A stretch of DNA of 64,000 nt from a candidate division FCPU426 bacterium. GTDB lineage: Bacteria > Oederibacteriota > Muellerivitia > Muellerivitales > Muellerivitaceae. Every line of letters starts with the position of its first letter. The stretch's first letter is position 1. The notes under the pieces are model-generated. The model worked only from the letters and a program-made list of their open reading frames with translations, did not search any database and was not told the DNA's origin. Made by a program: the position numbers and the translations under genes. Of the stretch, positions 30,109 through 53,115 are shown in pieces. The stretch is from contig CAVRAL010000004.1 in assembly GCA_963719085.1 (NCBI GenBank), positions 224,001 to 288,000 on the forward strand, in the 5' to 3' direction.

Positions 30109-30249
30109 GACGTTTTTAAAATTTATCCTTCTTTAATTTTACCGATTTTTGAACTGGATCAGAGTGGCCGGCCACAAGGGAACCCTGTGGCGCATCGAGA
30201 CTTCGTCTCGATACTACCGTTTTGAAATTAAATTTTTTAAGGAGAAAAA

Positions 30250-30294
30250 TGGTGGGGCATCCTGGATTTGAACCAGGGACCAAGGCATTATGAG
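30250..30294 (-). pseudogene. 3' half of the host CAU tRNA, intron-less, at the left island junction
   Basis: Reverse complement CTCATAATGCCTTGGTCCCTGGTTCAAATCCAGGATGCCCCACCA; tRNA similarity stops at the anticodon loop. Confidence 0.92.
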
Positions 30295-30361
30295 GACCTA
30301 GCTCATGAAATAAAAAAGGCCCGTGTCATACGTAAAACCCTTTCACCGAAAGGAGTTTACC

Positions 30362-31552
30362 TTAAGCAGTGACCTGCTCGTTCTTCTTTTTAGCGGCACC
30401 TGTCATATTCCTGTCATTGAAATCAGTCGCCTTGCGCAAAGCCGCGCGGCGGTCTTCCCTATCCACACGGTCATACTTCCGAAACACCGCATGGGTCTTA
30501 TGGCCTGAAATCGACATAATGACCGAGTCGCTCACTCCCGCTTTTCTCAAGTTCGTAATCGCGCAATGCCTGAGATCGTGAAACTTAAAATTCTCAATCC
30601 CAGCGTTGCGGCACGCCCTTCTAAAAGCGGTCTTCACACTTTCCATACTTTGACCGCGCCAAGTGAAAACACAGGGATTGACCAGCCGTTTTTCCCTATC
30701 CGTTAAATCAGAATACGGCTTGCCCAGTTCCCCATTTGGATATTTTTCAATATCAAAACAGGGTAGCGTCTGGGGAATCTGCTTCAGGAGTTCCTGCATC
30801 TCCTCCATCAGCGGTATTTCCCGTCGTTCCTGCGTCTTGGTGTCCTCCGCTTCGAGGACAATCACCCCATTCTTGAAGTCCACCTGATCCCAACGCAACT
30901 TCAAGATTTCACCACACCGCATGGCCGTCAAATAAGCCAGCCTTACAATGGGCTTCAAATGCCCCGAACAGTTTTCCAAGAGCTTTTGATACTCTTCCGG
31001 GTCCAACGTCCGGTTCCTAAAAAAGGGTTTGAATTTCTTCACCCCCTGAATTGGGTCCCATTCGATCATCCGGTTCAAAACCGCCCGATGCATCAGGGCT
31101 TTCAAAATGGCGATATCTAGGTTCAGCGTGGCGTCTGAAACCACTTTATCAGGCCGGTTTCGGTGTCCCTTTTCCCTTCGGCGGACCAAATAAGCTTCCA
31201 CCAAATCCGAACTAAAACTGTCCAAGGGACGATCACCAAAAAACTCCTTGAACCATTTCATCCGGTAGGTATCCCGAAGGTAGCTTTTCTTTCTGGCCTT
31301 TGAATAAGCCAAATAGGAATCCACCGCCGCGAAAAAACCAACCTTCGGTTTATCCGGAGCCAAATACTTCTGCTCCGCCATATCCCCCATGTTCTGGGCC
31401 AAAATCTTCTTGGCTTGCGACAAAGGAATCTGTCCCAACCGAACCCTTTTTCTTTTCTTCAGTCCCTTTTCCTGGACGAAATAATCCAGAAAATAACCCG
31501 CCTCATCCTTTCTCAGATGTTGCGGCAATCCATGAACATTAGGCTTAGCCAT
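30362..31552 (-). CDS. tyrosine recombinase/integrase (island integrase)
   Basis: AMRCGEI, KTQERR, FHDLRH, SGHKT...KY catalytic set; 3' end 68 bp from the att core. Confidence 0.93.
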   Translation of the reverse strand: MAKPNVHGLPQHLRKDEAGYFLDYFVQEKGLKKRKRVRLGQIPLSQAKKILAQNMGDMAEQKYLAPDKPKVGFFAAVDSYLAYSKARKKSYLRDTYRMKWFKEFFGDRPLDSFSSDLVEAYLVRRREKGHRNRPDKVVSDATLNLDIAILKALMHRAVLNRMIEWDPIQGVKKFKPFFRNRTLDPEEYQKLLENCSGHLKPIVRLAYLTAMRCGEILKLRWDQVDFKNGVIVLEAEDTKTQERREIPLMEEMQELLKQIPQTLPCFDIEKYPNGELGKPYSDLTDREKRLVNPCVFTWRGQSMESVKTAFRRACRNAGIENFKFHDLRHCAITNLRKAGVSDSVIMSISGHKTHAVFRKYDRVDREDRRAALRKATDFNDRNMTGAAKKKNEQVTA

Positions 31553-31955
31553 ACTTCCCCCTAATGTCCCCAGCGAAAACATTCTAGCAGGGGAACATTG
31601 CTTTTGCGAAAGCTATCAAAATTCCGATTTCTACAACACGGGTGTTAATCACCGTGTTAAAAATCAAACAAACTCCCTGGAGTGATTAAAACTACTCGGG
31701 CAAGCCATAAACAAAAACAGCAATTTTTGCGGTATTGTCGGACGAGGGAGAGAAGAAAAAAACGTGCTTATCTACCCGTATTATTTGAAATAGATTTTGA
31801 CGATGGATTGGTGAATTTAACTTGTTGCGGTAGGTAAGACTGCGGAACAGATTGCCAGCACACTCTTTCGTATTTATGCATCCGGTCTGATAGATCAGAG
31901 TGCGCTGGCTCTTAATTTAAAAAGTAATCAAAATATAAAACACAAATCGTTCTAA

Positions 31956-32750
31956 TTAATCAAAATTTGATGAGTCACGTTCCTCTTCAAAGACCCAAAG
32001 TAAAGAAAGCGCCGAAGTAGAATCACCTAATCTAATTGCTTGTTCAGATACCGACACGCTCAACTTATCCGGAAGCTCAGAAAACCAATTATCATAAAAT
32101 ATCTTTTGCATCGATGTTTCTTGCAAGTTATTTTTAATGCAGTTAAAAGCCATCGTCTTCTGTTTTAATTCCCATTGACGTTCTATAAATAATTTAGACT
32201 TATTCTTTTTCCACCAAACAACTTTCAAATCTTTTGAATATACGAGAAAACAATTTTCCTTAGTTGCATCAATAAACCTGAGAGCCGTGGCAGTAAACGA
32301 AGTATCAAAAACACTGGACAACTTTTTGATAGATGCAATTCCCGGTTCTAAAGAACGACATATGGGAAAAAATAGATTTCTTGGCATAAGTACTTCGGCA
32401 GCAAAAATATTCGCTTCCGTTTCAATCGAATCTTCTTCATTAACCGCCATCATATCTTTGTCATTGCAGATACTTGAAAATTTACTATCACGGTGCATTT
32501 TCCAATGACCAAGTTCATGGGCTACGGCGAAACGTTTTCTTCGAGGATCATCATTGGCGTTTATAGTAACAATTCCATTTTCGCCATTTTGAACTAACCT
32601 AGCATCAGCACCTCTAATAACTCCTTCTCGAACAATCAATCCTTGGTCCATTGCGATGTCTTCGATTCTTATATCTTCTGGCGTTTCAAATGAATACCGA
32701 TCAATAAACTTAGATGCTTCAATATGAGCCCGAGTTATATCAGCCTTCAT
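31956..32750 (-). CDS. ImmA/IrrE family metallopeptidase
   Basis: RKRFAVAHELGH (HExxH), ETEANIFAAEVLMP, FDTSFTA. Confidence 0.9.
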   Translation of the reverse strand: MKADITRAHIEASKFIDRYSFETPEDIRIEDIAMDQGLIVREGVIRGADARLVQNGENGIVTINANDDPRRKRFAVAHELGHWKMHRDSKFSSICNDKDMMAVNEEDSIETEANIFAAEVLMPRNLFFPICRSLEPGIASIKKLSSVFDTSFTATALRFIDATKENCFLVYSKDLKVVWWKKNKSKLFIERQWELKQKTMAFNCIKNNLQETSMQKIFYDNWFSELPDKLSVSVSEQAIRLGDSTSALSLLWVFEEERDSSNFD

Positions 32751-33192
32751 TGCTTCGCATCTTTCTTTGATGAATTTCTTCTAATAGCTTTAAATCTTTA
32801 AGAAGAGTAATCAAATCTTCATCGGCAAGATTTTCAAAATTTCTATAGTGCGCAGTTAGTAATTGGCGTCTGTCAGGCGAAATCGTCGAAACAAAATCGA
32901 TAAGCGCTTGTTTTACATTTGAAATATTTATTTCCAGATTCGATTCATTAGAAATAAACGTACTTTCGATTTCTTTTCTTTTGGCTTTTGCGGAATCCAA
33001 TTTTATTCTCGTGCAAATAACGTCGAATTGCCTACGCGCAATTTCCAAACGCGAATCAATATTAAAACCGTCTTCAACAAGCTCTTTACGAACTTCTTTA
33101 ATTGGCATCGATATTATTTCTTCAGGTTTTAGTTGAACAAAATCAAAAATGGATTGAAGCGTTTCTGTGTAATTTCTTTTTGTGTCGCTCAT
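32740..33192 (-). CDS. hypothetical helical protein between the sigma-like and ImmA genes
   Basis: Tightly coupled ORF with GAGGTG RBS; no recognised motif. Confidence 0.7.
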   Translation of the reverse strand: MSDTKRNYTETLQSIFDFVQLKPEEIISMPIKEVRKELVEDGFNIDSRLEIARRQFDVICTRIKLDSAKAKRKEIESTFISNESNLEINISNVKQALIDFVSTISPDRRQLLTAHYRNFENLADEDLITLLKDLKLLEEIHQRKMRSNEG

Positions 33193-33195
33193 GTT

Positions 33196-33822
33196 TCACC
33201 TCTCCGTTTCATTGGCTATAACGTTCAAATAATTTTCATCAATGATTTTCTGAAGTCGGCGATCAATCTGCTTTTTAAAGGCGGCGATTTGCTTATCACT
33301 TTTGCTCATTTGGTTAGCAATTTCAGCCGGTTTCAAATCATCTAAATATAATTCCAAAAACTTTATTAAATCGGCGTCATTTTCAATCACGACAAATAGT
33401 TTTGTCAGAATATCGCCACTAATTTTTTCAATTTCTTGTCGTTGGGTGTCAGTTAGCGGATTTGAAGAAATCTGTTCGAATACGTCTTCAACCTTTGAAT
33501 GAACTTCGCCTTCTTCATCATAAAAAGGTTTTTTAATATGGTTGTTATCTTCGTCTACCTGCAAGTTCCAAACTTCGCTTTTGACCATTTTGAATAAGAC
33601 TGGCAATAAATCAGGATACTTTTCTTGATTCCAATTTCTATCTCCACTACTAACTTTTGCAAAAACGCGAACAACTATATCCTCGCCCTCTTCCCCGTTA
33701 GCGGGTATTCCACCGTACTTCCCTTGCCAAAACCTACGTCTAAGTAAACCGTTGGCATACTTGGATAGCCTGAGATACCAATCCTCGAAATTCGTTTGAA
33801 TTAGATCCATTGGATTAGGCAT
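33196..33822 (-). CDS. ECF sigma factor-like protein
   Basis: Region-2-like EDIVVRVFAKV...LFKMVKSEVWN; C-terminal HTH LKPAEIANQMSKSDKQI. Confidence 0.65.
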   Translation of the reverse strand: MPNPMDLIQTNFEDWYLRLSKYANGLLRRRFWQGKYGGIPANGEEGEDIVVRVFAKVSSGDRNWNQEKYPDLLPVLFKMVKSEVWNLQVDEDNNHIKKPFYDEEGEVHSKVEDVFEQISSNPLTDTQRQEIEKISGDILTKLFVVIENDADLIKFLELYLDDLKPAEIANQMSKSDKQIAAFKKQIDRRLQKIIDENYLNVIANETER

Positions 33823-34228
33823 TTTTGGCCAAAGTTCCCGTTGATTTGTTCATCCCATCATCCTCTCACACTACCTATATGCTAATTATTCGAACATTAT
33901 GCCGAAATAATCATTCGATTTATTTTCGGCATGTTTGGAAATTTCTTAGCAGTATATAGATAAGGGGATAAATCCCCAAAAATGGCTAAAACGATTAAAA
34001 GGAATCGCCAGTTTGAGCGAAAACATCTGAGTCGATACTGTATCGACGAATCGAACATCTCAACAAGAATATCGGCTTAAAACCTATATTTAGACTTTAT
34101 ATGTTCCCCTCCGATGACTTTCATTCTAACTTACCCGCCGCCCCTAGGCGGTTAATCATTCGGTTCCTAGATTGTTACGCCCACTCCGTGAAAACGTAGT
34201 GAAATTTCAGTTAATGGAGGTTTTGATT

Positions 34229-34342
34229 ATGAAAGTTGGAAATATTATTTTATTTGCCCTTGGAGTATTTCTTTTTGGTGCGCTTACCGGCGGAGCCTTT
34301 GTTCTCAAAACTATGCAACCTAAACAAAATCTGCTGAATTAA
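34229..34342 (+). CDS. 37-aa single-TM peptide
   Basis: Translated by hand: MKVGNIILFALGVFLFGALTGGAFVLKTMQPKQNLLN; GGAGG 8 nt upstream; stop adjoins the next gene's RBS. Confidence 0.6.
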   Translation: MKVGNIILFALGVFLFGALTGGAFVLKTMQPKQNLLN

Positions 34343-34352
34343 GGATATAAAA

Positions 34353-34787
34353 ATGGGATTTTTCGAATACGATTCAGATGATATCGCCCAAACAATTGAA
34401 CAATGGCAGGCCACAGGAACAACAGAAGAAGAATGCGAAGAATCACTGGGTAAATACCTAAACCAAAAATTTGAAAAACCAGTTTTTCACAGACAGTTCA
34501 CAATTGGAAAATCAAGAGCGGACATATACGTCCGATTCCCCGGTGGTGCCTCTGTCGCAATTGAACTAAAAAGCAATTTAACAGAACGGACAGAGTTTCA
34601 ACGTTTGATCGGTCAAATGTATGAATACTTAAATGTCAGCGATGTGGAACTAGTAGTTGTACTGTGCGGGGATGGCAATCCCGCTCTCGAAAAGATGGTT
34701 CGAGACGCAGTTGCTTTTTTTAACGAACATCACGAAAAGAAAGTTCGTTACGTTAAAAAGGGCGTCACCGCCTTATCAGTTAATTAA
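34353..34787 (+). CDS. PD-(D/E)XK restriction-endonuclease-fold protein
   Basis: E...RADIY...VAIELK...LIGQMYEY. Confidence 0.7.
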   Translation: MGFFEYDSDDIAQTIEQWQATGTTEEECEESLGKYLNQKFEKPVFHRQFTIGKSRADIYVRFPGGASVAIELKSNLTERTEFQRLIGQMYEYLNVSDVELVVVLCGDGNPALEKMVRDAVAFFNEHHEKKVRYVKKGVTALSVN

Positions 34788-34794
34788 TCCCGGG

Positions 34795-34828
34795 GAGCAA
34801 AACTTTGAATAAAAGTTTTGCTCTTCTT
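34795..34828 (+). terminator. hairpin/terminator upstream of the MBL operon
   Basis: GAGCAAAACTTT-GAATA-AAAGTTTTGCTC followed by TTCTT. Confidence 0.5.
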
Positions 34829-34896
34829 ACTCACCAAAAAATCAACTTATCTAAAAATGATTTATTGATTATTTAAAAAATAAGCGAGGTTATAAA

Positions 34897-36063
34897 ATGG
34901 ATTTTTCTAGAATTGGGCGCGGAGTAATTTATTGGCCTGTTGGTAGCGGTGACTCTTCCACAATCATCGTTGACGAAAACACTATCATACAAGTGGATAT
35001 TAACAAGCGAGCTGACTCAGAAGAAGAAAATACCCTTTATACAAATATTGTTGAAAAGCTTAGAACTTCATTGCGAAAAAAGGATGCAAAGCCCTATCTC
35101 GATGTGTTCGTATTAACTCATCCAGACCAAGATCATTGTAAAGGATTCGAAGAACTTCTTAAAAATGTGACCATAGGAGAGTTATGGTTCACACCGCGAG
35201 TTTTCAAAGAATTCAAAACCGATTTATGCGATGACGCAAAAGCGTTTCACACAGAAGCAGAACGTCGAATCAAAAAAATCATCCAAGAAAATGGCAACGT
35301 CACTTCAGGTAACCGCGTTAAATTATTTGGTTATGACGAGATAATTGGTAAAGGTGGTGATTACGAAGGTTTTCCAAAAGAGCTTTTGATCATACCTGGA
35401 ACATCTTTTAACTCGGTCGATGGGGTTTATCGAACTGAAGTTGACTTTTTTGCGCATAGCCCATTCAAAGATGATATGGACGGAGAACGAAATCACACCA
35501 GCCTTTCATTTCAAACCGTACTTAAAAAAGCCAATAAAGAACTAAAATTACTTCACTTCGGCGATTTGGCACACTTGCAATTAAAAAAGATTTTTGAAAA
35601 AACGAGCGATTCAGACAATCTTGGGTGGCACGTTTTGCTTGCTCCCCACCATTGTTCAAAATCAGCTATGTATCACTCCGAAGACGCGGATAGCGAAGAA
35701 ACTCTTCAAGCCGATTTCATTACCGGAATAACTAGCACCAAAGAGAAAGTTGCTTATATTGTTTCAAGTAGTGAAATTATCCCAGCAGACAATGACAAAG
35801 GCGATAATCCACCTCATGCCAAAGCGAAAAATCGTTATGTAGAAGTTGTAAACGAAAATTTCTTTTGCACTCATGAACACCCTGATGAAAAAAATCCAGA
35901 GCCAATAATCTTCAGATTGAACGATGACGGGAACATCGTTCCACCACAGCCGACAAAAAAAGAAAAAAAGGACCAAGGAAAATCTTTGGGAGCGAGTATC
36001 TTGACCGCCAGAGGGACAACTAATCAACCTCCCAAAAACCCAAGGCAATTTGGTCATGCTTGA
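34897..36063 (+). CDS. ComEC-like metallo-beta-lactamase-fold hydrolase with low-complexity tail
   Basis: PVGSGDS, LTHPDQDHCKG, HFGD, APHHCS; tail ...PPKNPRQFGHA. Confidence 0.85.
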   Translation: MDFSRIGRGVIYWPVGSGDSSTIIVDENTIIQVDINKRADSEEENTLYTNIVEKLRTSLRKKDAKPYLDVFVLTHPDQDHCKGFEELLKNVTIGELWFTPRVFKEFKTDLCDDAKAFHTEAERRIKKIIQENGNVTSGNRVKLFGYDEIIGKGGDYEGFPKELLIIPGTSFNSVDGVYRTEVDFFAHSPFKDDMDGERNHTSLSFQTVLKKANKELKLLHFGDLAHLQLKKIFEKTSDSDNLGWHVLLAPHHCSKSAMYHSEDADSEETLQADFITGITSTKEKVAYIVSSSEIIPADNDKGDNPPHAKAKNRYVEVVNENFFCTHEHPDEKNPEPIIFRLNDDGNIVPPQPTKKEKKDQGKSLGASILTARGTTNQPPKNPRQFGHA

Positions 36064-38266
36064 AAAACAACAGACAGCAGTTCAAGAACTAAGAGATATA
36101 GAATCAACATCTAATAATGGCATTGAGCTAGTAACATCGCCGCATTTCGATGTATCGACACAAACAACAGTTATGGAAATCTCTATCGATTGTTCAAGCT
36201 TTGAGATGCGCGGCAATAATCATTTGTCACTTTCTCAACGTGAACGAGTAGTGATATTTTTAGACAAGAATTATCCCTTTTCCATACCGATTGTTGCAGT
36301 TTTTCATAATAGATTCATTACTTCCGCACACGTTCAGTGGATGCGGGAATTTGAAAAATATAAGGCTGTACTACCCACAATTTGCCTATATCAATCACCA
36401 TCCAATGATTGGGAGCCAAGTGAAGGGATGTTTGGGCTTATGGATAGATTAGTAAAATGGTTTGCTCGCGGTGCCGTGGCAGAGCTTGATCTTCCCGGAG
36501 ACCCGATTCATGCTCCCCTTGCCTATTACAGTCAATCCAATCCTATTCGTATAGTTCTGAGCAAAAACGCTCCAACGGTTGGTAGAGAAAGTTGGATTGG
36601 ATATTTTAAATATAAACGCATTAAAGAAAACATTTACGAAGTCGTTGATTTCATTCAAGACACTGATATTGATGACAGTTGTGGCTTAGGTTGTGCTTTT
36701 TTATTACCTCACGAAACATTTTTTGAATTCCCCAATCAATTAGACCATTTAATAAAGCTCATAACAAACCACGGAAACATTAATCAATCCACGATTGCTT
36801 CTAATATGGCAAAAGTCCAAAATCGCATTGGAAAAAATTTTCCTTTATTTGTTATGGTAGGCTCACCGATGCGAGGAATTGCGGGCGAAGCAGAAAGAAA
36901 ACTGCATCTAGCCATCGGTGATATAAGTGCACAGGCCATAACAGACAAAACTGACTTAAACAGTATTAATTGGTGCAAATCTTACGAAAACCGTGAAGAA
37001 ATAATTATCAAAAGAGATAACTACTCAAATATCACTTCATTAAGAGATAAAAATATTTTACTTATCGGGGTTGGAGGTCTGGGAGGATATGCTGCCGAAT
37101 CAATCGTTCGTAGTGGAGCTAAAAAAATAACGGTAGTAGATTTCGGCGAAGTGCATCCAGGACTGTTATCAAGACAAAATTACACTCACGAAGATATTGG
37201 AAAACCAAAAGTCGAAGCAATCCGCGATAGAATTACCAAAGTAAATCCAAACTGCGAAGTAACAATTATCAATAACGATTTTCTGACGGTTGCCGATTCC
37301 ATTAAATTTGAAGATTTTGATTTCATCATTAATCTAAGCGCCTCAAATCCAATTAATCTATATTTTGAACAACTTTCGAAAACTAAAAGATTTCCAACTG
37401 TTGCAGTGGGACTTATAAGTGCCGATGCCAAAGTTTTGCTTGGAACAATATCCGACAAAACTTATATCGGCGGTCAAAAGCAATTACTTCGTAACTTTCA
37501 TATTCGAATGCTTTCTGATAGAGAATTAGAAGAAGTTACCAAGAAAATATGGCCTGAACCAGGCAATGAAAATAACTTTCAGCCAGAACCCGGTTGCTCT
37601 GAACCGACTTTTACCGGTTCTGCAACCGACATGCAATTCCTTTCGTCGTTTTTCATTAATCAAATTTCAGAATACTTCGGACAACAAAACACCACATCGG
37701 GCCGCTTATTTGGCATACATCAACCAACCAACGGAATTACAAAGACATGGAGTTTTTTCCCCGAATGTTATCAACAATTCGATATATCCGACAACGATGC
37801 TAAAGTTAGAATTTCATCAAAATCATTAGCACAATTAAAAAGCCATGTCGCAAAAGCACAAAAGTTACGTGGTTCATCTTGTGAAACAGGCGGCTTAATG
37901 TACGGAAGAGTTGAAAATGCTATCGATTTAATTTGGGTTGACGAATGTACCGATGCGCCAAGTAATAGTGAATTTTCCGCAAGTGGTTTTCATTGCGGGA
38001 CAAATGGAGTCGAAGAATTATCAAAAAAAATATCTAAAGCCACTAATGGAGAGAGTTGTTTCATTGGATATTGGCATACACATCCTAACGGGCCAACAAA
38101 GCCCAGTTTTACAGATTTACTTGCGGCATTTGAAACAGTTTCGACTTCCGGAGAAAATCTAAGACAAGTATTATTCATGATTATTAATCCGGACAATTTT
38201 TCATTTGATTTTTATTTCTTCGATCACGTTAACGGTCAATTAAGGATAGTCATTGTCAGAGAATAA
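36056..38266 (+). CDS. E2-E1(ThiF)-JAB fusion (Cap2-Cap3-like)
   Basis: E2 YPFSIP...AHV...ICLY; E1 GVGGLGG, VVDFG, SRQ, GKPKV, PEPGCSEPTF; JAB ETGG...WHTHPNGPTKPSFTD; ATG at 36056 overlaps the MBL stop. Confidence 0.88.
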   Translation: MLEKQQTAVQELRDIESTSNNGIELVTSPHFDVSTQTTVMEISIDCSSFEMRGNNHLSLSQRERVVIFLDKNYPFSIPIVAVFHNRFITSAHVQWMREFEKYKAVLPTICLYQSPSNDWEPSEGMFGLMDRLVKWFARGAVAELDLPGDPIHAPLAYYSQSNPIRIVLSKNAPTVGRESWIGYFKYKRIKENIYEVVDFIQDTDIDDSCGLGCAFLLPHETFFEFPNQLDHLIKLITNHGNINQSTIASNMAKVQNRIGKNFPLFVMVGSPMRGIAGEAERKLHLAIGDISAQAITDKTDLNSINWCKSYENREEIIIKRDNYSNITSLRDKNILLIGVGGLGGYAAESIVRSGAKKITVVDFGEVHPGLLSRQNYTHEDIGKPKVEAIRDRITKVNPNCEVTIINNDFLTVADSIKFEDFDFIINLSASNPINLYFEQLSKTKRFPTVAVGLISADAKVLLGTISDKTYIGGQKQLLRNFHIRMLSDRELEEVTKKIWPEPGNENNFQPEPGCSEPTFTGSATDMQFLSSFFINQISEYFGQQNTTSGRLFGIHQPTNGITKTWSFFPECYQQFDISDNDAKVRISSKSLAQLKSHVAKAQKLRGSSCETGGLMYGRVENAIDLIWVDECTDAPSNSEFSASGFHCGTNGVEELSKKISKATNGESCFIGYWHTHPNGPTKPSFTDLLAAFETVSTSGENLRQVLFMIINPDNFSFDFYFFDHVNGQLRIVIVRE

Positions 38267-39365
38267 AAGAATCGGACTATGTCTTTCCGGTGGCGGCTTT
38301 CGAGCGGTTGCTTTTCATTTGGGGTGCCTCCAAGGCCTTAATAACCTTGGATTGCTTAAACACATTCGATCAATATCCTGTGTTTCTGGCGGCTCAATCA
38401 TAGGCACGCTCTACACTCTGTACGGTCAAACAGACTTTTCAGAATTTGAAAAAAGAACCAAAAGAATGTTACAAACTAGGCTTGATCTTAAAATTGCCTA
38501 TAAACATATTTCTTCAGGGCGATTCTTATTCGATCTTTGTCAGTTGGGCACGTGTCTTCCAATACGATTTATTTCTCAAAAACTAAACTTCAATTTTGAA
38601 TTTCAAAGAAAATATAGTCTGACCGAATCACTCGTTAAGATATTTGATAAAGAATTTGATAAAAAACTTCTATCAAATCTTCAAAACTCTCCCATTGAAC
38701 TTATTATTAACGGGATTGAATTAAGAACATTTAGTGCAATTCGTTTCGGAGCTAAAAAAGCTGTTTGTTGGAGATTCGGCGAGATCGACCCTTCTCTAAT
38801 TTCGTTGGGAGAAGCCGTTGCTGTTAGTGCGGCTTATCCCCTGCTTTTACCTGCCTTAGAGCGAAAATACAGTTTTTCAAAAAAGGGAATAACCTACAAG
38901 GAAACTGTTTCTTTATCTGATGGCGGAACATATGACAATCTTGGACTCACACCATTTATAAGCACAAATGACTTCGCAGATAGTTATCCCCGACCCGAAT
39001 TAGACTACATTATTGCATGCGACGCCGCTCACGGACAGCTTCATCCACAAACATTGCCACACACACCCATTTCAAGATTACACGCCGCATTCAAATCGTT
39101 GATGAGTCGTTCTAGGCACTCTAACTTTAAAACTCTTCATAAGCTTAAAGAAGATGGTGACATAAAAGGTTTTTCATTAGCTTATTTAGGTCAACAAGAT
39201 GAAAGAATCCCAATTCCACCTATCGATTTAGTTCAGAAAAATCGTGTGGACTCATATCCAACAGATTTTAAAAAAATGAGTGACGACAATTTTGAAGTTC
39301 TAACTAAACGCGGCAGACAACTCACCGAATCTTTAACTACGCACTATTTACCAGAATTATTTTGA
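38253..39365 (+). CDS. patatin-like phospholipase
   Basis: LSGGGFRA, VSGGS nucleophile, SAAYP, DGGTYDN. Confidence 0.9.
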   Translation: MSENKRIGLCLSGGGFRAVAFHLGCLQGLNNLGLLKHIRSISCVSGGSIIGTLYTLYGQTDFSEFEKRTKRMLQTRLDLKIAYKHISSGRFLFDLCQLGTCLPIRFISQKLNFNFEFQRKYSLTESLVKIFDKEFDKKLLSNLQNSPIELIINGIELRTFSAIRFGAKKAVCWRFGEIDPSLISLGEAVAVSAAYPLLLPALERKYSFSKKGITYKETVSLSDGGTYDNLGLTPFISTNDFADSYPRPELDYIIACDAAHGQLHPQTLPHTPISRLHAAFKSLMSRSRHSNFKTLHKLKEDGDIKGFSLAYLGQQDERIPIPPIDLVQKNRVDSYPTDFKKMSDDNFEVLTKRGRQLTESLTTHYLPELF

Positions 39366-39379
39366 ACAATAAAAAATTG

Positions 39380-44164: not shown

Positions 44165-44290
44165 AGCCCCAACTTATTCAAAATTAATACAAATGATCTT
44201 GTTTAATATGGTCTCTCTCGAAAAACCCGTCTGATTCTACGCTTCCACGCCAAAGTTTTCTCAACTTTATTTGGATGGCTCAAACAGCTG

Positions 44291-46003: not shown

Positions 46004-46097
46004 AATTACGCCTCTTTATCCGCTGTTCTTCCATAACACATCGCTTTAATCATATCTCTGAATAACGATCTGTATCACCACAAACCGCTTTTCAGAT

Positions 46098-46568
46098 TCA
46101 ATTGTCTAAAGACCCTTCGTGTTCGGTGTATTCCTCCGTCGTCCATTTATGCCCGCAAAGCGGGTCTTTACATTCCCAAAAGTGGCAGATCGTTTCATTA
46201 ACCATTTTGACCTGCTCCAATCGACTGACTTCATACCCCTGATTTGGGGTAAAAATTTCATTGGAATAGAGAACCCCATGGTCAATCCGCTCCACCGTTT
46301 CGAGATTTTCCCATTGTTCGATAACCTCGCCTTTAACGAATTGCCTTTTCCAGAACCGCTTGCACTGAGGACATCGGCTTTGGAATGCTTTCACCAAGCA
46401 CCAAACCGCCGGCTTTAAGGTGATGCAGTACAGCGGATAAAAAACAAACCAGAAGGCCTTTAGGACAAAACAGACCGCGCCTAAAGCCATCATCAGAAGA
46501 AACACGGCCAATACCACGGCGAGCCCAAATAAAAACAGATAAGCCAAAAAGCTAAATAAGGTATGCAT
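46098..46568 (-). CDS. membrane protein with split Zn-ribbon
   Basis: Hydrophobic N-terminus; CPQC...CKDPLC. Confidence 0.6.
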   Translation of the reverse strand: MHTLFSFLAYLFLFGLAVVLAVFLLMMALGAVCFVLKAFWFVFYPLYCITLKPAVWCLVKAFQSRCPQCKRFWKRQFVKGEVIEQWENLETVERIDHGVLYSNEIFTPNQGYEVSRLEQVKMVNETICHFWECKDPLCGHKWTTEEYTEHEGSLDN

Positions 46569-46717
46569 AGTTCCCCCTTTGCCGGGCTAATAACATGCTG
46601 AAAAAATCCCCCGAACGGATTTTTTCAGCCGACAACATCTACGGTAACCCCACGATTCCTGCTGAATCTTTGGGGTGACAGGCTGCTTTGTAGCTCTATT
46701 ACTTTTTTAGCAACCTG

Positions 46718-47194
46718 CTAAAGCAGCCCGGCTTGTCTAAAAGAAAAGTGACCTTCATGAGTAACGATTAAATGGTCATGAACCGCTATGCCCAAAGCCC
46801 TTGAGGCGGTCACGATCTGACGGGTTAACTGCTTATCGCCTTCACTGGGTTCCAAGCTTCCGGCGGGGTGGTTGTGGGAAAATATCAGCCCCGTGGCGTT
46901 TAATTCCAAAGCCAATTTCAAAATCTCTCTGGGATAAACCGCCGTATGGTCTACCGTGCCTTCGGTATTCAAAACCACATCCAAAACATGATTACGATGG
47001 TCTAGGTACATGGTCAAAAAAGCTTCCTTGGCCCTGCCGCCAATGTACTTACGGAAATATTCGGCGGCGTTTTGGGGCTCGCTAACGACGGGGCCTCTTT
47101 TGTAATCCATTCGTGCTTCGGCCCATGAGGTAACGGGAATGGTCGGCGGGGGAAGGGCATCCACACTCAATTTCAGTTCAAGTTGCTTTTTCAT
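46718..47194 (-). CDS. RadC-like JAB/MPN domain protein
   Basis: GTVDHTAVYPRE, HNHPAG...PSEGD, VHDHLIV; start MKKQLEL after GGAGG. Confidence 0.9.
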   Translation of the reverse strand: MKKQLELKLSVDALPPPTIPVTSWAEARMDYKRGPVVSEPQNAAEYFRKYIGGRAKEAFLTMYLDHRNHVLDVVLNTEGTVDHTAVYPREILKLALELNATGLIFSHNHPAGSLEPSEGDKQLTRQIVTASRALGIAVHDHLIVTHEGHFSFRQAGLL

Positions 47195-47901
47195 ATAACG
47201 GCCTCCTTTTTTCATCTGGTTTTTCTGAAGGTTTTTTGCCTTTGAAAAACCGCCTTCCGCCTCCCCCCTTGCCCAAAAGAGGGGGGAGGAAGAAGGCCAT
47301 AGAGGAGGTTTGAGCGTTCGCGCTGACAGGACCAAAAACGAATGGGATACCAAACGAAGGGAGGCCATCCCTTAACTTTTGTGACAGCCGCCCTTTGGCT
47401 GGCGCAAAAGTTGCCTTGCAAGGGTGGCCGTGAAGGGATAAACAGGGTCTAGGGGCAGGGCGAACGATCAAAACTTTCCATCGTTCTAAGCCCTAAAACG
47501 GATGACCATCTACGGGGTTTGACTTGAGTTGGGCTTAATACAGCTGTGGGGACATCTACTTGGTGGTTAATGACTGATCACCTTAACCACTGATACTTTG
47601 AACTTCTCTTGAACCGACTTAAAACGACTGACTATTCACAAGCTTCACAATCTAAGATTCCTTCATCTTTAACTTCTCTTATACCTAATCACCTTCTTTC
47701 CTCAGGCTTATCAATTCGGCTTTCTTCACCTCCCAGTTCTTTTTCTTCTCTTCTTCATCCTTCCACTTCCCCGCTAATTGCCCAGCCTACCTCTTACCTC
47801 ACCACCCACTACTTCTTTACCCATCCCCCATATCCTTCTCTATGCCTTTGTGTTCCATGATTCTTCTCATCTCGTCTTTGAGGGTTTTTCCATGCGGAGA
47901 G

Positions 47902-47950
47902 GGCGACCCCCCCTATCGACTTTCTTGATGCATAGATAGGGGGGGTCGCC
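47902..47950. repeat. perfect 16-bp inverted repeat
   Basis: GGCGACCCCCCCTATC-N17-GATAGGGGGGGTCGCC. Confidence 0.85.
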
Positions 47951-48162
47951 ATCGGAGTGTGGAAAAACCCGCCTTAAAAAGCCAAAAACGCCAAAATCAT
48001 AGTTCCATGGCACGGAACTACTTGTGGCACAACTTGGTTCGGTATGAGGGGGATGGGAAACATGGTTTGAGGTGTTTTGCGAAGGCGCTTCGATGCTATT
48101 TTCGACATTGCTTCCCCGGACTTATCGGGTTCTGGGTATCAACATCTTCGGAGGACAAACAA

Positions 48163-48450
48163 ATGGACGACAAGCTCTTTAAGCTTCCCTATCACGGCAA
48201 TAAGGTATTCAAACGGTCTGATCTATTCCCGGATAACCTGCCGGAATTCATGACCCTGAAAGCCATCGAAAAGGTCTATTCCATCAAACCCCAAACCATG
48301 CGCGATCTCTTAAGCCGACACCGGACAACCGGCATCCCCGCCCCGTTCATTTACCTACCCGGCTGTAAGCCCCTGCTGATTAAGCGGACTTCCTTTGAGG
48401 ACTGGCTATTGGCCCAAAGCAATGTGATTAAGGTTAAAAAGGAGGGCTGA
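48163..48450 (+). CDS. excisionase/MerR-type HTH small DNA-binding protein
   Basis: FMTLKAIEKVYSIKPQTMRD...GIPAP...LLIKRTSFEDWL; GGAGG RBS; directly upstream of an integrase. Confidence 0.6.
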   Translation: MDDKLFKLPYHGNKVFKRSDLFPDNLPEFMTLKAIEKVYSIKPQTMRDLLSRHRTTGIPAPFIYLPGCKPLLIKRTSFEDWLLAQSNVIKVKKEG

Positions 48451-48484
48451 CCTGGGATATTCAAAAATAAGGAGTGTTTAACTA

Positions 48485-49663
48485 ATGGCTTTTTTAAAGA
48501 TGAAGGTCAAACAATGCGAGGATAACCGTGAAGAGCTGAGAGCCTATGCCTACGATTCTTACGTGCTGAATGGGCAACAAAAGCAATTTTCTGTCCATAG
48601 ATTCGGCTTATGTCGCGATAAAGCCGATGCGAATGAACGTTTCAAAAAATGGCTAAAAACTTACAAAGAAGCCAAAGCCCAAAAGCGGCTATTACCTAAG
48701 ACCCCAACTTTGCAGGAATTCGCACCTTTATACCTTGAACGAAATGAACAGTTAACCGGCAACAAACACCAAAGCAAAGCCTCGTTGAAACACCTCATTA
48801 GACACCTTGGGAAACGCCCTTTAGATCAAATCACAAGGCTGGTCGTTTTGAACTATCGGGATTCCAGGACAAGTGAACCCATTAAAACAAAAGGCAAAAA
48901 TAAGGGAAAATTTCCGAGCCCCAAAACCATTAACCACGAACTTTCAACCCTATCCAGCTTGGTACGAAAAGCTCTCGAACTTGAACAGATCAAAGAACAT
49001 CCCTTTTTAAAATACGGCATCAGCCTTAAACGAAACTTCTTCTTAAAAGTAGTTCAAACCCCAAAACCCGCCCTAACCCGCCAAGAGTTTATGTCCCTCA
49101 TGGAAAGCACTACTGAAGAACGTTCGAAGGTAATTACCTTGCTCTATGCCGTAACGGGAATGCGCCAAGGCGAACTGATAAACTTACGGTTGACCGACAT
49201 TGATTTAGACCAAAACCGAATTACCTTTAGAGCACCGAAGACAGGTGACTTTAGGACGTTGGCAATCCCTAGCGTCTTAAAACCCCTCTTTGAAAAGCTT
49301 CTCACTCACCTGCCCTTAAGAACAGGCTGGCAGAAACGGAAACCCTATCAACGAGAACATATCCTTTGTAACCAAAAGGGTGAACAACAGAAGACGCCGG
49401 GGAAGGATTTTATGACTCAAGCCGCTCAAAGGGCCGGTATTAAAAAGCACGTCACGCCCCACATTTTAAGACATTCGTTTTGCTCCCATGCGGCCAACCA
49501 TGTCAATATTTGGGAGCTTAAAGAACTAATGGGACATAAAAACATCACCACCACGGAGATTTACGTTAAAACCTTCAAAACGCCTGATGTAGAGACAGCC
49601 AACAAAATTACAGGAAGTTTGGGGATTGATGCCAACTTTTTAAACTCGGTCTTATCGAATTAG
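48485..49663 (+). CDS. second tyrosine recombinase/integrase
   Basis: TGMRQGEL, PKTG, PHILRHSF, MGHKNITTTEIY. Confidence 0.92.
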   Translation: MAFLKMKVKQCEDNREELRAYAYDSYVLNGQQKQFSVHRFGLCRDKADANERFKKWLKTYKEAKAQKRLLPKTPTLQEFAPLYLERNEQLTGNKHQSKASLKHLIRHLGKRPLDQITRLVVLNYRDSRTSEPIKTKGKNKGKFPSPKTINHELSTLSSLVRKALELEQIKEHPFLKYGISLKRNFFLKVVQTPKPALTRQEFMSLMESTTEERSKVITLLYAVTGMRQGELINLRLTDIDLDQNRITFRAPKTGDFRTLAIPSVLKPLFEKLLTHLPLRTGWQKRKPYQREHILCNQKGEQQKTPGKDFMTQAAQRAGIKKHVTPHILRHSFCSHAANHVNIWELKELMGHKNITTTEIYVKTFKTPDVETANKITGSLGIDANFLNSVLSN

Positions 49664-49689
49664 GGAAACCCGATAAAGAGACAAGCCTT

Positions 49690-49899
49690 TCATTGGAGCT
49701 TTCTTCTTTCCCTTGCATGAAGCTTCGCATGTTCACTTCTGCTCATATTGACGAGATTGCTTTCTCTGAAGTTTTTTGGATTCCCATCTATATGATGCGT
49801 GACTTGACCTTTTTTGGGTTGGGCTACAGTTCTATGAACCAATTTTCCGCTATCATTCCAGACAGGATAACCTTTTGGATTGTAATGAAACCTTCCCAT
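49690..49899 (-). CDS. small HNH endonuclease domain protein
   Basis: VHRTVA...HHIDGNPKNFRESNL...SEHAKLH. Confidence 0.8.
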   Translation of the reverse strand: MGRFHYNPKGYPVWNDSGKLVHRTVAQPKKGQVTHHIDGNPKNFRESNLVNMSRSEHAKLHARERRKLQ

Positions 49900-49927
49900 A
49901 GCTTACTCCTTTCAATGTGAACTTCGC

Positions 49928-50275
49928 TTACGCGCTCAACCTTACGTGAAAAAGCCAGACATCGACGATCATGTGAAACTCATATTCTTCCAGAGGCATC
50001 CCGTGTCTGAGTTTGGTGGCGATTCGACGGCCAAAATCGGCTTGCTCTCCCTTTGCCTCCGGTGAGGGCTCAACTATCTCGAGGGCAAATTTCAACAAAT
50101 CCCCGGTCAACCGTTCATTACTAATCAGCTTCCTCTTGATTTGGCCACAGCGCCAGTTTCGGAGTTTGCGGGCCTCCTCTTTTTCAGGATTCCGGAACGC
50201 GCGGGCGAAACAATCTTCCATGAACAAATCTTCCGGCCAAACCAATTCAAACGGCTTCTTTGGCTCTTTTTTCAT
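49928..50275 (-). CDS. hypothetical protein
   Basis: ORF with GGGGGAG RBS; no recognised motif. Confidence 0.55.
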   Translation of the reverse strand: MKKEPKKPFELVWPEDLFMEDCFARAFRNPEKEEARKLRNWRCGQIKRKLISNERLTGDLLKFALEIVEPSPEAKGEQADFGRRIATKLRHGMPLEEYEFHMIVDVWLFHVRLSA

Positions 50276-50725
50276 AGGCTCCCCCTTTCAGGTTTTAAGA
50301 ATATTTAAACCCCAGAGACGAAAAGGACAAGAAAAGTATTGGTTTGAAGTTATCAATAATGCGCTGAGTGACACAAAACGAGGTTTTGTTTACATGACCG
50401 TAACATTAGGGGTTATGCCGAAGATCGCCCAAGATTGCCGAGGCCAGGTGAAGGCTTTCCTAAAGAAAAATTTATTTTTCTGACGCTTTTTTAGCGCCCT
50501 GAAATAAAAGAAGCTCGAGTTTCTTTTTACGCCTTTCTAAATCTTCTGGGGGCAAAGGAATAACCCGAACCTCAACTGGGAGTTTTTCTAATTCTTTCTT
50601 TTTCAAAACGACCTTTTCTTATTCGCAGCTTATCTTGAGAATTCCCATCTACTATTCCGTCTATATTAGATTATATGAGTTTGTATAAGATTAAAGATGA
50701 GGCAGGATGAGCCTCAAGGGGGAAA

Positions 50726-51061
50726 CTATTTTATTTCCCTTTGAAAATTCACGGTTGGAATTACATCGACTATGGTTTCTTCAGGAAGAAGTCCGTTTTT
50801 TAGAACACCTGAACTTTCCAAATAGGCATTTTTGTTGGGGCCATCATCGGGAATATCTAAACCGGCTTCAGAAGCCGCATAGGCAATAACAGCTTTAAGA
50901 TGTTCCGCCGTTAATTCAGGATAAGTTTTAAGAATGTTTTCGATGTTATCGCCCAAAGCCAGATGACCCAAAACAGATTTTAGAGTTACTTGGGTTCCTT
51001 TTATAACAGGAACGCCGTTTCGTATTTTCGTGTCACGGATAACGTAATCTTTAAAGTTCAT
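50726..51061 (-). CDS. DUF433 domain protein
   Basis: IRNGVPVIKGTQV...ILKTYPELT...AVIAYA. Confidence 0.85.
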   Translation of the reverse strand: MNFKDYVIRDTKIRNGVPVIKGTQVTLKSVLGHLALGDNIENILKTYPELTAEHLKAVIAYAASEAGLDIPDDGPNKNAYLESSGVLKNGLLPEETIVDVIPTVNFQREIK

Positions 51062-51214
51062 ATTTAATTCCAAGTATCAAACATCGGTTTTTTTGTGTTG
51101 ATATTAGCGTAGCGTCTTTGTACATTTGGGTTGGAGGCTTTGCGGAGTGAAGTTTACTCTGCATTGCCTTTTTTATTTTCAGGCTATTTTGAAACTTAAA
51201 TTCTATTAAAAGAA

Positions 51215-51583
51215 TTACAAAATATTTTTAAAATCTTTTTTTAAGAAGGGCGATGCTTTTCCGCCACGTCTTAGCTTTTCTAACAATGCGTCAGAAATAT
51301 CATCTTCCTGCGTCGCTATATGCATTTGAATAGCTTCTTCAATTTTTTGGATATCCGAAAGTATGGCTTCCCTATAGTTAACCGCAGATTCTTTCCTGAT
51401 AAAAGGATGCTCACCGGAACGTAATACACACGAATGATCTCTGTCTTCGTCATTCTCTGTGATGTTTACAAGCAAAACCTTGCCGTTATCGTCGGGTTCG
51501 GTAATTGCAAAATACAAGTGAGGTGGATTTTGCGGCCAACTTGGGTTTTTAAGGAGAACAGCGCTTTTGATTTGAATTGGCAT
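51215..51583 (-). CDS. putative toxin (PemK/MazF-like fold) paired with a Panacea antitoxin
   Basis: PHLYF...LLVNIT...GEHPFIRKESAVNY; starts 12 bp after the DUF4065 gene. Confidence 0.6.
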   Translation of the reverse strand: MPIQIKSAVLLKNPSWPQNPPHLYFAITEPDDNGKVLLVNITENDEDRDHSCVLRSGEHPFIRKESAVNYREAILSDIQKIEEAIQMHIATQEDDISDALLEKLRRGGKASPFLKKDFKNIL

Positions 51584-51595
51584 GGTGAATGCCGT

Positions 51596-52141
51596 TTATG
51601 AGCCGAAAACTGTACTGGCAAAATGAAAGTCCGAAGTCTCTTGCGCAATCTTTTTAATCTCTTTCGGAGCTTTCCCAATAGTTGTCAATAATGCTTCAAA
51701 CGCAATAGGAAACGAAGAGCCGTTCGGGTCTTCCCATTCTTTTGTGTGAGTATGGCAATAGTCGATCATTTGCCCGAAGGAATGCTTTTTAAACTTTTTA
51801 TCGATTTCATTCAAAATCTTTTCTTCGGCTTCGGAAAGTTCGCCGTCGCCTGGGTCTTGTATCAAAGCCACTTCGAAGCCCTGTTTCTTGATGGAAATCA
51901 TCCAATATTTATTCTCGGATTTCCCTTTCAGCCAGTCATAAACTTCGCTCAAAACAGGACCGTTATCCATCGATACATAACTTCCACCAATAATGGGACG
52001 ATTCCATTTCTTTAAAGCTTCACGATCAGAAAGATACATAAGCTTAATCATTTTTGTGTAATTAAGACGCTTGCCATTACTTTTAATAAAGTAGGCTGCC
52101 ACCTGCGTGGCTTTGAGTGGATTTAATTGAAAAGCGATCAT
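51596..52141 (-). CDS. Panacea (DUF4065/SocA-like) antitoxin
   Basis: KMIKLMYLSDR, MDNGPVLSEVYD, YCH...EW. Confidence 0.88.
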   Translation of the reverse strand: MIAFQLNPLKATQVAAYFIKSNGKRLNYTKMIKLMYLSDREALKKWNRPIIGGSYVSMDNGPVLSEVYDWLKGKSENKYWMISIKKQGFEVALIQDPGDGELSEAEEKILNEIDKKFKKHSFGQMIDYCHTHTKEWEDPNGSSFPIAFEALLTTIGKAPKEIKKIAQETSDFHFASTVFGS

Positions 52142-52243
52142 GGGTTACTCCTGCGACTTAGTATATCTATCTCTAACGATAGACACTTAAATTTTCAATA
52201 GGACAGCCGAATTACGGTTATTTTTAACTAAAAAATCAAATAG

Positions 52244-52540
52244 TGGTGGGGCATCCTGGATTCGAACCAGGGACCAAGGCATTCAGGTTTGTGTCGTTTA
52301 CACGACTCCCCGGACTATCTCTTCACCCAAACATCAGGGTGTGGGACGCTTCTTCGCGGTCATTAAGGGGTCTTAACCCCTCCGCTAGTCTCTGCACCTT
52401 CCTCCGGTGTACCGGAAGCTTGGCTCAGGATTGCCTCTGTGAGGTTTCCCTGACTTCATCCCAATTCATCCAACAGCTTTCGCCATTGGTGCACAGCTTT
52501 TGCTATGAGTGCCCTGCTCTAACCGCTGAGCTAATGCCCC
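52244..52540 (-). tRNA. CAU tRNA, probably tRNA-Ile2, intron-containing (exons 52540-52505 and 52283-52244)
   Basis: Spliced 76 nt: GGGGCATTAGCTCAGCGGTTAGAGCAGGGCACTCAT^AATGCCTTGGTCCCTGGTTCGAATCCAGGATGCCCCACCA; full cloverleaf, no initiator features, resembles E. coli ileX; elongator Met not strictly excluded. Confidence 0.92.
52284..52504 (-). ncRNA. group I self-splicing intron (221 nt, no ORF)
   Basis: P1 CAU|AGC-AAAA-GCU-GUG with U.G at the 5' splice site; P4 UCAGG/CCUGA; P7 GAGACUA/AUAGUC; P3 UGGGAUG/CGUCCCA; P9 GUCGU-GUAA-ACGAC; terminal G. Confidence 0.92.
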
Positions 52541-52552
52541 TCTAAATCGTCC

Positions 52553-52567
52553 GTCATTTTACGTTAG
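52553..52567 (-). promoter_or_regulatory. -10 region of the island tRNA promoter
   Basis: CTAACGTAAAATGAC, identical to 53083-53097. Confidence 0.7.
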
Positions 52568-52898
52568 ATTCACCAAAACACAACAAATCAACGAATGACA
52601 TGGATATGACACTAACCCATTTTTTGATCGTGGCACTTTTGATGGTCTGCTCTCAAATCCAAGTTTTTCCTTAGATCAGGGCAGTAAAAGTGTCCTGCTC
52701 TCGCCGTGTCTTATTCGTGTCATTCGTAGTGCTGTTTTACCGCCCTTTACCGCCACTGACTGTCTTTGACCATGCTTTCAAAAAAAGACCCTTGCCCGCA
52801 ACCTCTCTAAAAGCGTTACGGGCAAAGGCATTCAAAACGTGCTGGGGACAGTTAAATTTTTACTGCACGGACTTTCCGACTCCAAAAAGCCTTGAAAA

Positions 52899-52938
52899 CA
52901 TTATGAGTGCCCTGCTCTAACCGCTGAGCTAATGCCCC
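52899..52938 (-). pseudogene. 5' half of the host CAU tRNA, intron-less, at the right island junction
   Basis: GGGGCATTAGCTCAGCGGTTAGAGCAGGGCACTCATAATG followed by non-tRNA sequence with no T-arm or acceptor. Confidence 0.92.
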
Positions 52939-53082
52939 GAGGGTCAACAAAAAATCTAATAGAGACCTCGGGGTAATCCCCGAATGGGATGCCCCGATTT
53001 ACTTTACGCTTTTGGGGTAATCCCCTCTTAGGAGGGTGCCCCGGTTTTATTGGGTTCCCCACATGGGGTCGCCCCAAAGACG

Positions 53083-53115
53083 GTCATTTTACGTTAGCCC
53101 GGGGATACCGTCCAA
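53083..53115 (-). promoter_or_regulatory. host tRNA promoter
   Basis: TTGGAC-N18-TAAAAT just downstream of the sulP stop. Confidence 0.6.

Follow-up and report, generated by a model that had tools for sequence, protein, structure and literature searches.

A putative defence island that splits a host tRNA-Ile(CAU) gene and carries an intron-bearing replacement in a candidate division FCPU426 bacterium

The targeting of tRNA genes by genomic islands is reportedly the subject of a 2002 article by Williams in Nucleic Acids Research (NAR). Under the rule described as canonical, the attachment site of the element, attP, restores the tRNA gene that is entered, and 2083 of the 3919 Islander islands are anticodon-centred (as given in the relevant part of PMC4383910). 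Here we analyse a 64-kb stretch of contig CAVRAL010000004.1 from a candidate division FCPU426 bacterium (the whole stretch hereafter called the window), in which 22.6 kb of DNA lies between two halves of a host tRNA-Ile(CAU) gene and carries a second, complete copy of that gene interrupted by a group I intron. We propose that positions 30295-52898 are an integrative defence island that replaces the tRNA it breaks and belongs to a family recombining at the tRNA-Ile(CAU) anticodon loop, a reading to which we assign a probability of roughly 0.68.

Parts of this arrangement have precedents. The Azoarcus pre-tRNA-Ile contains a 205-nucleotide (nt) group I intron in the anticodon loop, followed by a 40-nt 3' exon (as outlined in PMC13168695). 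At the tRNA-Thr(GGU) locus of the archaeon Caldiarchaeum subterraneum, a 5' fragment precedes a 1.8-kb insert with a recombinase, and the tRNA that follows carries an additional intron (Sugahara et al. 2012, PMC3293823). In the passage of that paper on its origin, the authors proposed that the attP of an integrated element carried the intron, and remarked that the element might gain from it if later invaders were kept out. Randau and Soll are cited, in a passage of PMC4390854, for the view that disrupted tRNA genes protect against integration. The words island, integrase and prophage occur 0 times in a review of bacterial group I introns from 2014 (PMC3984707). A preliminary description of this stretch, made from the sequence alone, held the arrangement to be undescribed. 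For bacteria this stands, in that none was found in the full-text literature (subscription-only papers lay outside its coverage); the idea that such an intron benefits the element is older, having been proposed for the archaeal tRNA-Thr (PMC3293823).

The split host gene, the intron-bearing copy and the junctions

The two halves of the host gene (Table 1) overlap by exactly 9 nt, which read CTCATAATG in the tRNA sense. Within the window this core occurs at 30286 and 52899 only, and about 0.5 occurrences would be expected by chance over both strands. When the halves were joined by a script from their coordinates, the product was a 76-nt cloverleaf tRNA with anticodon CAT and with CCA, and the 5' half is 100% identical to the 5' part of intact genes at three related loci (L002, L004 and L008, described below). 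ARAGORN with default settings found 0 tRNA genes in the window and Rfam likewise none, so that neither junction is a gene, and the DNA past each core is unrelated to the missing tRNA half. The preliminary description had reported both features, namely two halves that share a core and can be joined into a complete tRNA and junctions at which the missing half is not rebuilt, and both are confirmed here. Between the cores the guanine-plus-cytosine (GC) content is 35-49%, compared with 52-59% in the flanks; the step falls exactly at both cores, and the low-GC interval looks foreign. The flanks are ordinary chromosome, with three AHSA1-type protein genes and an acyl-CoA synthetase/GNAT fusion on the left and sulP, arsR, rpoD and dnaG on the right.

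With introns allowed, ARAGORN finds a complete gene inside the right end of the interval (the spare), with the intron between positions 36 and 37 of the tRNA (CTCAT/intron/AATGC). Its exons match the joined halves except for a single base in the T-loop (TTCGAAT versus TTCAAAT). The intron matches the Rfam model Intron_gpI (RF00028) at 68.2 bits (cut-off 50; E = 3.5e-15; model positions 1-253), and the introns of five homologous loci also exceed the Rfam threshold (67.6-84.9 bits). The second copy thus has the form first ascribed to it: complete, with a group I intron within the core and a single T-loop difference. Group I introns follow a rule in which U closes the 5' exon and G is the last intron base. 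In all six copies the borders read ...CTCAT / AGC...CCTG / AATGC, with a 5' exon ending in U and an intron ending in G. The blocks of the catalytic core are invariant in all six, and 9 of the 64 predicted intron pairs show compensatory change with the pair kept, mostly in peripheral hairpins, which with six sequences is modest evidence. In these alignments the structure of the intron is conserved across elements, which points to constraint. At 221 nt, the intron leaves no space for a homing endonuclease gene.

Both the joined halves and the spare hold a CAU anticodon in a standard cloverleaf according to ARAGORN, a program that labels every CAT anticodon Met. The Rfam tRNA model scores 71.5-71.7 bits on three intact genes from related loci. 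In Escherichia coli, the intact gene is closest to tRNA-Ile genes of 76 nt whose anticodon is CAT (83-84% identity over 70 nt); tRNA-Lys genes follow at 76%, and no Met gene is among the best 8 matches. The best match, a tRNA-Ile(CAT) gene at 84% identity, makes the earlier assignment to tRNA-Ile2 plausible, the tRNA species whose CAU anticodon reads as isoleucine once TilS has modified it to lysidine.

A 15-mer with a TAAAAT -10-like hexamer lies 13 nt upstream of the island tRNA (52553-52567, minus strand), and the sequence recurs unchanged 145 nt upstream of the host remnant (53083-53097; 2 matches, 0.09 expected). A promoter scan gives a site at 53114-53086, at the copy near the host remnant, and the 15-mer may be a promoter element at both places. 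Between this promoter-like 15-mer and the host remnant, GC-rich palindromic repeats of the type GGGGATTACCCC / GGGGCAYCCC occupy 52939-53082. Similar repeats precede the intact tRNA in L002 (about 400-488), a locus labelled as a different phylum, and in L008 (about 7706-7790), and part of the GGGGATTACCCC-type motif is the reverse complement of the 3' acceptor strand of the tRNA.

The junctions themselves resemble attachment sites. Beside the 5' remnant, about 205 nt of right arm are conserved in all six elements (that of the window and those of five related loci), with 70% mean column identity and long invariant blocks. Identity to the host gene ends with CTCATAATG in the window, L005 and L006, with CTCATAAT in L001 and L003 and with CTCATAA in L007, and in each case the conserved T-rich start of the arm comes next; junctions at these points place strand exchange inside the 7-nt anticodon loop. 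The DNA downstream of the intron-bearing tRNA is conserved between the window and L005 only. Since the arm beside the remnant is conserved in 6/6 elements and the DNA downstream of the spare in these two alone, the att-like conservation lies at the remnant junction. The arrangement also departs from the tRNA-restoring, Islander-type layout, because no tRNA stands at either junction and identity ends after 7-9 nt in all six.

Motifs within the arms link the two ends of the island. CGTGTCAT is invariant in the right arm of all six elements and recurs 28 nt inside the left junction of the window. The invariant arm block AATGACACG recurs near the left junction in the same orientation, with CGTGTCAT on the plus strand at 30322, as a 52705-type copy and at 52716; the form CGTGTCWT is found at 52705 and 52716 in the right arm. 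Its presence at both ends suggests that CGTGTCAT may represent arm-type sites of one integrase. All six right arms also keep a stem followed by a run of seven Ts, possibly a terminator that would stop transcripts from the orphaned host promoter. At 30286-30311 the core is followed, 7 nt on, by an imperfect inverted copy of itself (CTCATG...).

The tyrosine integrase gene at the left end, int1, is the presumed cognate recombinase. It is a full-length open reading frame (ORF) that ends 67 nt from the left core, with a terminator-like hairpin after it, and its true start is probably further in, because its relatives are 365-396 amino acids (aa) long. A search at E <= 0.001 gave 302 relatives, of which six share 96, 83, 73, 70, 69 and 68% identity with int1 and the others 60% or less; the phage and plasmid collections held no relative above 31% identity. 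Relatives 56% and 54% identical are recorded on contigs of 331,478 and 273,567 nt, sizes that match the contigs of L007 and L005, respectively, which is a circumstantial connection.

Related loci and the history of the module

A scan of species-representative genomes for exact matches to the 36-nt 5' half yielded eight loci (L001-L008), in each of which ARAGORN with introns allowed finds one CAT tRNA. The window's own genome is absent from the hits, and the closest rpoD is 83% identical. At three of the eight loci (L002, L004 and L008) the tRNA is intact and intron-less. L004 represents an empty site, with a homologue of window positions 30198-30249 after its tRNA and an OmdA, rpoD and dnaG neighbourhood before it, and L004 9907-10005 is 87.9% identical to window 30198-30294 over 99 nt, the half gene included. 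At L008, the intact gene lies about 2.6 kb from homologues of the AHSA1 genes of the window. On the evidence of these two loci, the 22.6 kb has been inserted into a tRNA gene that is otherwise complete and has no intron, as had been claimed. The accompanying expectation that island-free relatives would have the intact intron-less gene next to sulP was borne out for the gene (3/8 loci) and failed for the neighbour (0/8), the conserved neighbours being rpoD-dnaG. In L008, the roughly 2.6 kb between the AHSA1 genes and the tRNA (5035-7629) is low in GC (0.39-0.49), contains small ORFs without an assignment and may record other traffic through this site.

The layout of the right end of the window, with a 5' remnant, the conserved arm and an intron-bearing tRNA, recurs at the other five loci (L001, L003, L005, L006 and L007), each in a different species. 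Their introns are 220-223 nt long, and the tRNA lies 450-480 nt downstream of the remnant, except in L007, where the distance is 1.7 kb. None of the 8 loci combines an unbroken site with an intron-bearing gene. This recurrence supports the previous claim that the intron-bearing copy is part of the inserted DNA. The L007 spacer (8332-10000; 1.7 kb versus about 0.4 kb) contains three small ORFs, one of which has an HTH_3 domain. Only 4 of the 18 island proteins are shared with a related locus, in each case L005 (the 156-aa ORF, RadC, the 122-aa ORF and SocA). At L006, mixed genes occupy 9.7 kb of DNA with a lower GC content. The tRNA-plus-arm region matched nothing in the plasmid collection; in crAss-like phages it gave 3 weak matches, all to the core of the intron.

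Comparison of trees indicates that this module and its hosts have different histories. The host tree, built from rpoD and dnaG (3582 columns), joins L005 with L007 (100/100) and L004 with L006 (82/81). The element tree, built from the tRNA plus arm (510 columns), joins L005 with L006 (99/98) and makes the window their sister (100/99), with L001, L003 and L007 as the other group. The approximately unbiased (AU) test, for clades named after the identity matrices had been seen, rejects L005 with L006 on the host data (p = 7e-7) and L005 with L007 on the element data (p = 4.6e-4). The intron-bearing tRNAs of L005 and L006 are 97% identical, whereas the rpoD genes are 79% identical. At L001 and L007 the spare differs from the remnant in the same genome at a D-loop base and is thus not a local duplicate. 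Because the element tree conflicts with the host tree, the module has, on these sequences, either arrived at this site repeatedly in separate lineages or passed from one lineage to another. This conflict supports mobility indirectly.

Proposed mechanism and alternative explanations

Under the island reading, attP would carry the core only, with no tRNA half, and integration would therefore leave the host gene as two dead halves. Some 360 bp in from its right end, the element would bring a tRNA-Ile(CAU) gene that is complete, with its own -10-like element and a 221-nt intron, and splicing of this group I intron would yield a normal tRNA standing in for the broken one. Tyrosine recombinases require a pair of core sites, inverted with respect to each other, on either side of a 6-8 bp overlap. 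Since the intron holds the halves of the anticodon stem-loop 221 bp apart, the spare could not serve as the target site, attB. An intron-less spare, by comparison, would be a direct-repeat partner of attP about 360 bp away on the free circle, and the integrase would split the element. If an uninterrupted copy leads to self-splitting, the intron would be at least a precondition for carrying a spare, limiting the tRNA copies open to an element of this type. No usable attB would be left in the cell for rival elements, an imprecise deletion that removed the spare would be lethal, and the intron would spread as a passenger.

These steps differ in strength. The preliminary description held that the island complements the gene it breaks. 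The insertion, its recurrence and the conflicting histories of module and host uphold that part of the claim, and it is well supported that the island supplies a replacement tRNA; we infer that int1 is the acting integrase, that the spare is spliced and used, that it is the sole tRNA-Ile2 gene and that the intron has a selective role. That the intron may persist because it abolishes the attB core is logically sound and plausible. Any anticodon-loop intron interrupts an anticodon-loop core, however, so the coincidence of intron and core is automatic. A broader "break and replace" scheme is more tentative, and we judge it possible at somewhat short of even odds: elements of this kind would destroy the essential single-copy tRNA-Ile2 gene and substitute an intron-hidden copy restored at the RNA level, gaining self-immunity, excluding competitors and holding the host hostage, and decay of the element, perhaps already seen in L007, would leave the intron-bearing tRNA as the only copy.

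Several observations weigh against the island reading. The left junction, with the integrase and the 3' half, is known from the window only, and the island-side DNA of L003 and L005-L007 (8-10 kb; for L003, whose contig ends there, <2 kb) has no 3' remnant and no homologue of int1 or of a second integrase gene, int2. The int1 relatives on the L005 and L007 contigs are only 54-56% identical to int1. Cargo is almost wholly different between loci, with nothing in common outside L005. For 8 kb beyond its spare tRNA, L007 has host-like GC (0.50-0.56) and sugar-metabolism genes, so that its element may be decayed or much larger, or the remnant and spare may persist without an island, an outcome that the preliminary description had counted as refuting. 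No excisionase was recognised among the 14 small or unassigned island ORFs examined for domains, and the tRNA-Ile2 genes given by the scan are those of the eight related loci. Because the six introns share one origin, their presence in 6/6 elements is one observation, not independent evidence of selection; the order in which the AU clades were named also counts here.

Much of this would be expected if the remnant, arm and intron-bearing tRNA were a fixed and ancient replacement, the old scar of an element now immobile, with an interval made mosaic later by int2, by recombinase trios and by ordinary recombination. The sharing of only 4/18 island proteins with L005 alone, the lack of int1 or int2 relatives in the island-side DNA of the four longer loci, the unrelated integrase trio at L005, the host-like far side of L007 and the second integrase inside the island of the window all suit such a history. 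It is harder to reconcile with the conflict between element and host trees, in which the AU test rejects each arrangement on the other data set, with the similarity of the L005 and L006 spares beside their divergent rpoD genes, and with the grouping of the empty-site locus L004, at moderate support, with the island-bearing L006. The window itself has perfect 9-nt cores, a full-length int1 at the junction and an arm motif at both ends. On balance we consider an ancient replacement unlikely. The spare could instead be a neutral passenger, dispensable cargo from an intron-bearing donor in a host with a second tRNA-Ile(CAU) gene elsewhere, its intron having no role in recombination. Chromosomal tRNA-Ile genes with anticodon-loop group I introns and the same 40-nt 3' exon are described in Azoarcus (in the part of PMC13168695 on that intron), and an intron in the anticodon loop necessarily lies inside an anticodon-loop core. 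Against this, in the 5 island-bearing relatives the 5' half is found in the remnant and the spare only, a weak point in view of incomplete metagenome-assembled genomes and exact matching; an intron-bearing spare is retained in 6/6 elements while nearly all other cargo turned over, and intron pairs have been maintained through compensatory change. Reasoning from recombinase mechanics, if attB were uninterrupted and lay in direct orientation some 360 bp from attP, it would also be a substrate for self-deletion. We rate the passenger explanation as a little less probable again than an ancient replacement.

An assembly artefact, in which mis-joining at repeats in a metagenome assembly produced the split gene and the duplicated tRNA pieces, is very improbable. 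It is true that the loci compared were taken from metagenome-assembled genomes and that there are repeats of 37-45 nt; yet the junction of remnant, arm and intron-bearing tRNA is reproduced in 5 independent assemblies of different species, the GC shift coincides with both cores, and the left half is joined to host flank homologous to the L004 empty site. We rejected an ordinary island, in which the intron-bearing tRNA would be the regenerated target, 30250-30294 its displaced fragment and the 5' remnant an older relic. The 3' fragment has CTCAT joined directly to AATG and thus comes from an intron-less gene, which argues against that model, as do the att-like arm beside the 5' remnant in all six elements and the conservation downstream of the intron-bearing tRNA in the window and L005 only. 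Moreover, the older event would need the left junction that is observed, so that the model collapses into a single insertion. An archaeal-style intron carried inside attP was also set aside: identity at the remnant junction ends 1-4 nt past the intron position, which is too short for an overlap 3' of the intron. A 9-bp target duplication by a transposon is not favoured, given junctions of 7-9 nt, a constant position in the anticodon loop and a tyrosine integrase that abuts the end.

Island cargo and comparison with known systems

Between int1 and the spare, the island cargo is anti-phage defence genes (Table 1). The CapP-like peptidase and its small partner ORF are placed divergently near the 6A-MBL-type system, and the Type ISP enzyme has Mrr-like nuclease, helicase, coupler, methylase and specificity domains. 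The int2 region is probably a separate small insertion inside the island. At the equivalent place, L005 (3064-6360) has three tandem tyrosine recombinase genes instead. We considered int2 as the cognate integrase and find this unlikely: it is without a homologue in any related locus, and L005 has that other recombinase trio there. The interval between RadC and SocA (47959-49920 in the window) looks like a secondary hot spot for insertion within the island.

Table 1. Coordinates of the host tRNA halves, the arms, the island tRNA and the genes of the island in the window
Feature	Position	Strand	Evidence or remark
Host tRNA-Ile(CAU) 3' half (anticodon loop to CCA), 45 nt	30250-30294	-	Core copy 30286-30294; attR-type junction
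Left arm, core to int1 stop codon	30295-30361		Terminator-like hairpin 30338-30354; one CGTGTCAT motif 30322-30329
int1, tyrosine integrase, presumed cognate recombinase	30362-31582	-	Pfam Phage_integrase 3.4e-28, profile positions 2-169 of 172
CapP-like M78 peptidase	31956-32750	-	PADLOC capP 2.9e-56; cargo
150-aa ORF adjoining the CapP-like peptidase, small partner	within cargo stretch 31956-33192	-	
Anti-phage 6A-MBL-type system	34897-39365	+	NF058524 4.2e-90; NF058523 (cap2_3) 8.4e-84, at 282 bits below the NCBIfam curated cut-off of 320; cargo
MBL-fold protein of the 6A-MBL-type system	34897-36063	+	
E2/E1/JAB cap2_3 fusion	36050-38266	+	
Patatin-like phospholipase	38253-39365	+	
Type ISP restriction-modification enzyme, single chain, 1594 aa	39380-44164	-	Cargo
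156-aa ORF and RadC, backbone common to the L005 island	46098-47368	-	64% and 81% aa identity to L005
RadC	46718-47368	-	
int2 region with flanking small ORFs, including an HNH fragment (69 aa)	47959-49899		
int2, second tyrosine integrase	48485-49663	+	
DUF433 protein	50726-51073	-	
122-aa ORF and SocA/Panacea-domain protein beside the tRNA copy	51215-52141	-	74% and 81% aa identity to L005
SocA/Panacea protein	51596-52141	-	
Island tRNA-Ile(CAU) gene	52244-52540	-	5' exon 52505-52540; intron 52284-52504 (221 nt); 3' exon 52244-52283
Conserved right arm adjoining the core	52690-52898	-	Stem and T-run terminator-like element 52780-52829; GACACG/GGTAA-type repeats
Host tRNA-Ile(CAU) 5' half (acceptor stem to anticodon loop), 40 nt	52899-52938	-	Core copy 52899-52907; attL-type junction

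One implication of our study is that the relationship between an island and its host may take a different form here. Textbook tRNA islands repair the gene they enter, and a broken gene with a spare changes that relationship: the host would come to rely on the island except where excision is precise, rival elements would lose the attachment site and tandem arrays would be impossible. If this is true, a self-splicing intron has a job for a mobile element, that of hiding a recombination site in DNA, and elements of this kind could provide a route by which group I introns without an endonuclease, that of the Azoarcus tRNA-Ile among them, came to be distributed so patchily over bacterial tRNA genes. 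We know of no report of an island context for the Azoarcus intron. There are also practical consequences for annotation, in that programs which match a tRNA gene to its displaced fragment would put the right boundary of such islands in the wrong place or overlook it, and default tRNA finders miss what is presumed to be the only working tRNA-Ile2 gene (0 found).

Compared with canonical tRNA islands as presented in the relevant part of PMC4383910, the element has a tyrosine integrase at one end, a tRNA target and an anticodon-loop crossover in common, together with direct repeats at its ends, foreign base composition and defence cargo. It differs in that a canonical attP carries a tRNA fragment that regenerates the gene, whereas here the common segment is 7-9 nt and a separate complete gene lies inside (PMC4383910). 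Islands with dusA-specific integrases, in the account given in part of PMC4482086, likewise enter a functional gene and compensate for the damage. They restore the gene at the junction; in the present case an independent intron-bearing paralogue would compensate (PMC4482086).

The intron itself is closest to that of Azoarcus, with which it shares the tRNA species, the intron site, the length of the 3' exon, a small endonuclease-free form (205 versus 221 nt) and the Rfam family (by the description in PMC13168695). The Azoarcus intron differs in being described as part of a chromosomal gene (PMC13168695). Like the window, the Caldiarchaeum locus combines a 5' fragment of an intron-poorer tRNA, a recombinase-bearing insert and an intron-richer tRNA (in the corresponding passages of PMC3293823). 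Unlike the window, it is archaeal, a protein endonuclease removes the intron and the tRNA is rebuilt from element and host parts; those passages describe no separate complete spare gene and give no evidence of a recurrent element family (PMC3293823). The idea of Randau and Soll, as relayed in part of PMC4390854, has in common with ours that a tRNA gene can no longer act as attB once an intron lies in its recombination site. There, archaeal host genes protect themselves, whereas here the copy carried by the element would be protected and the host gene destroyed (PMC4390854). The window thus combines a tRNA-targeting island with a tRNA group I intron, both of known kinds, under a logic that is unusual and testable.

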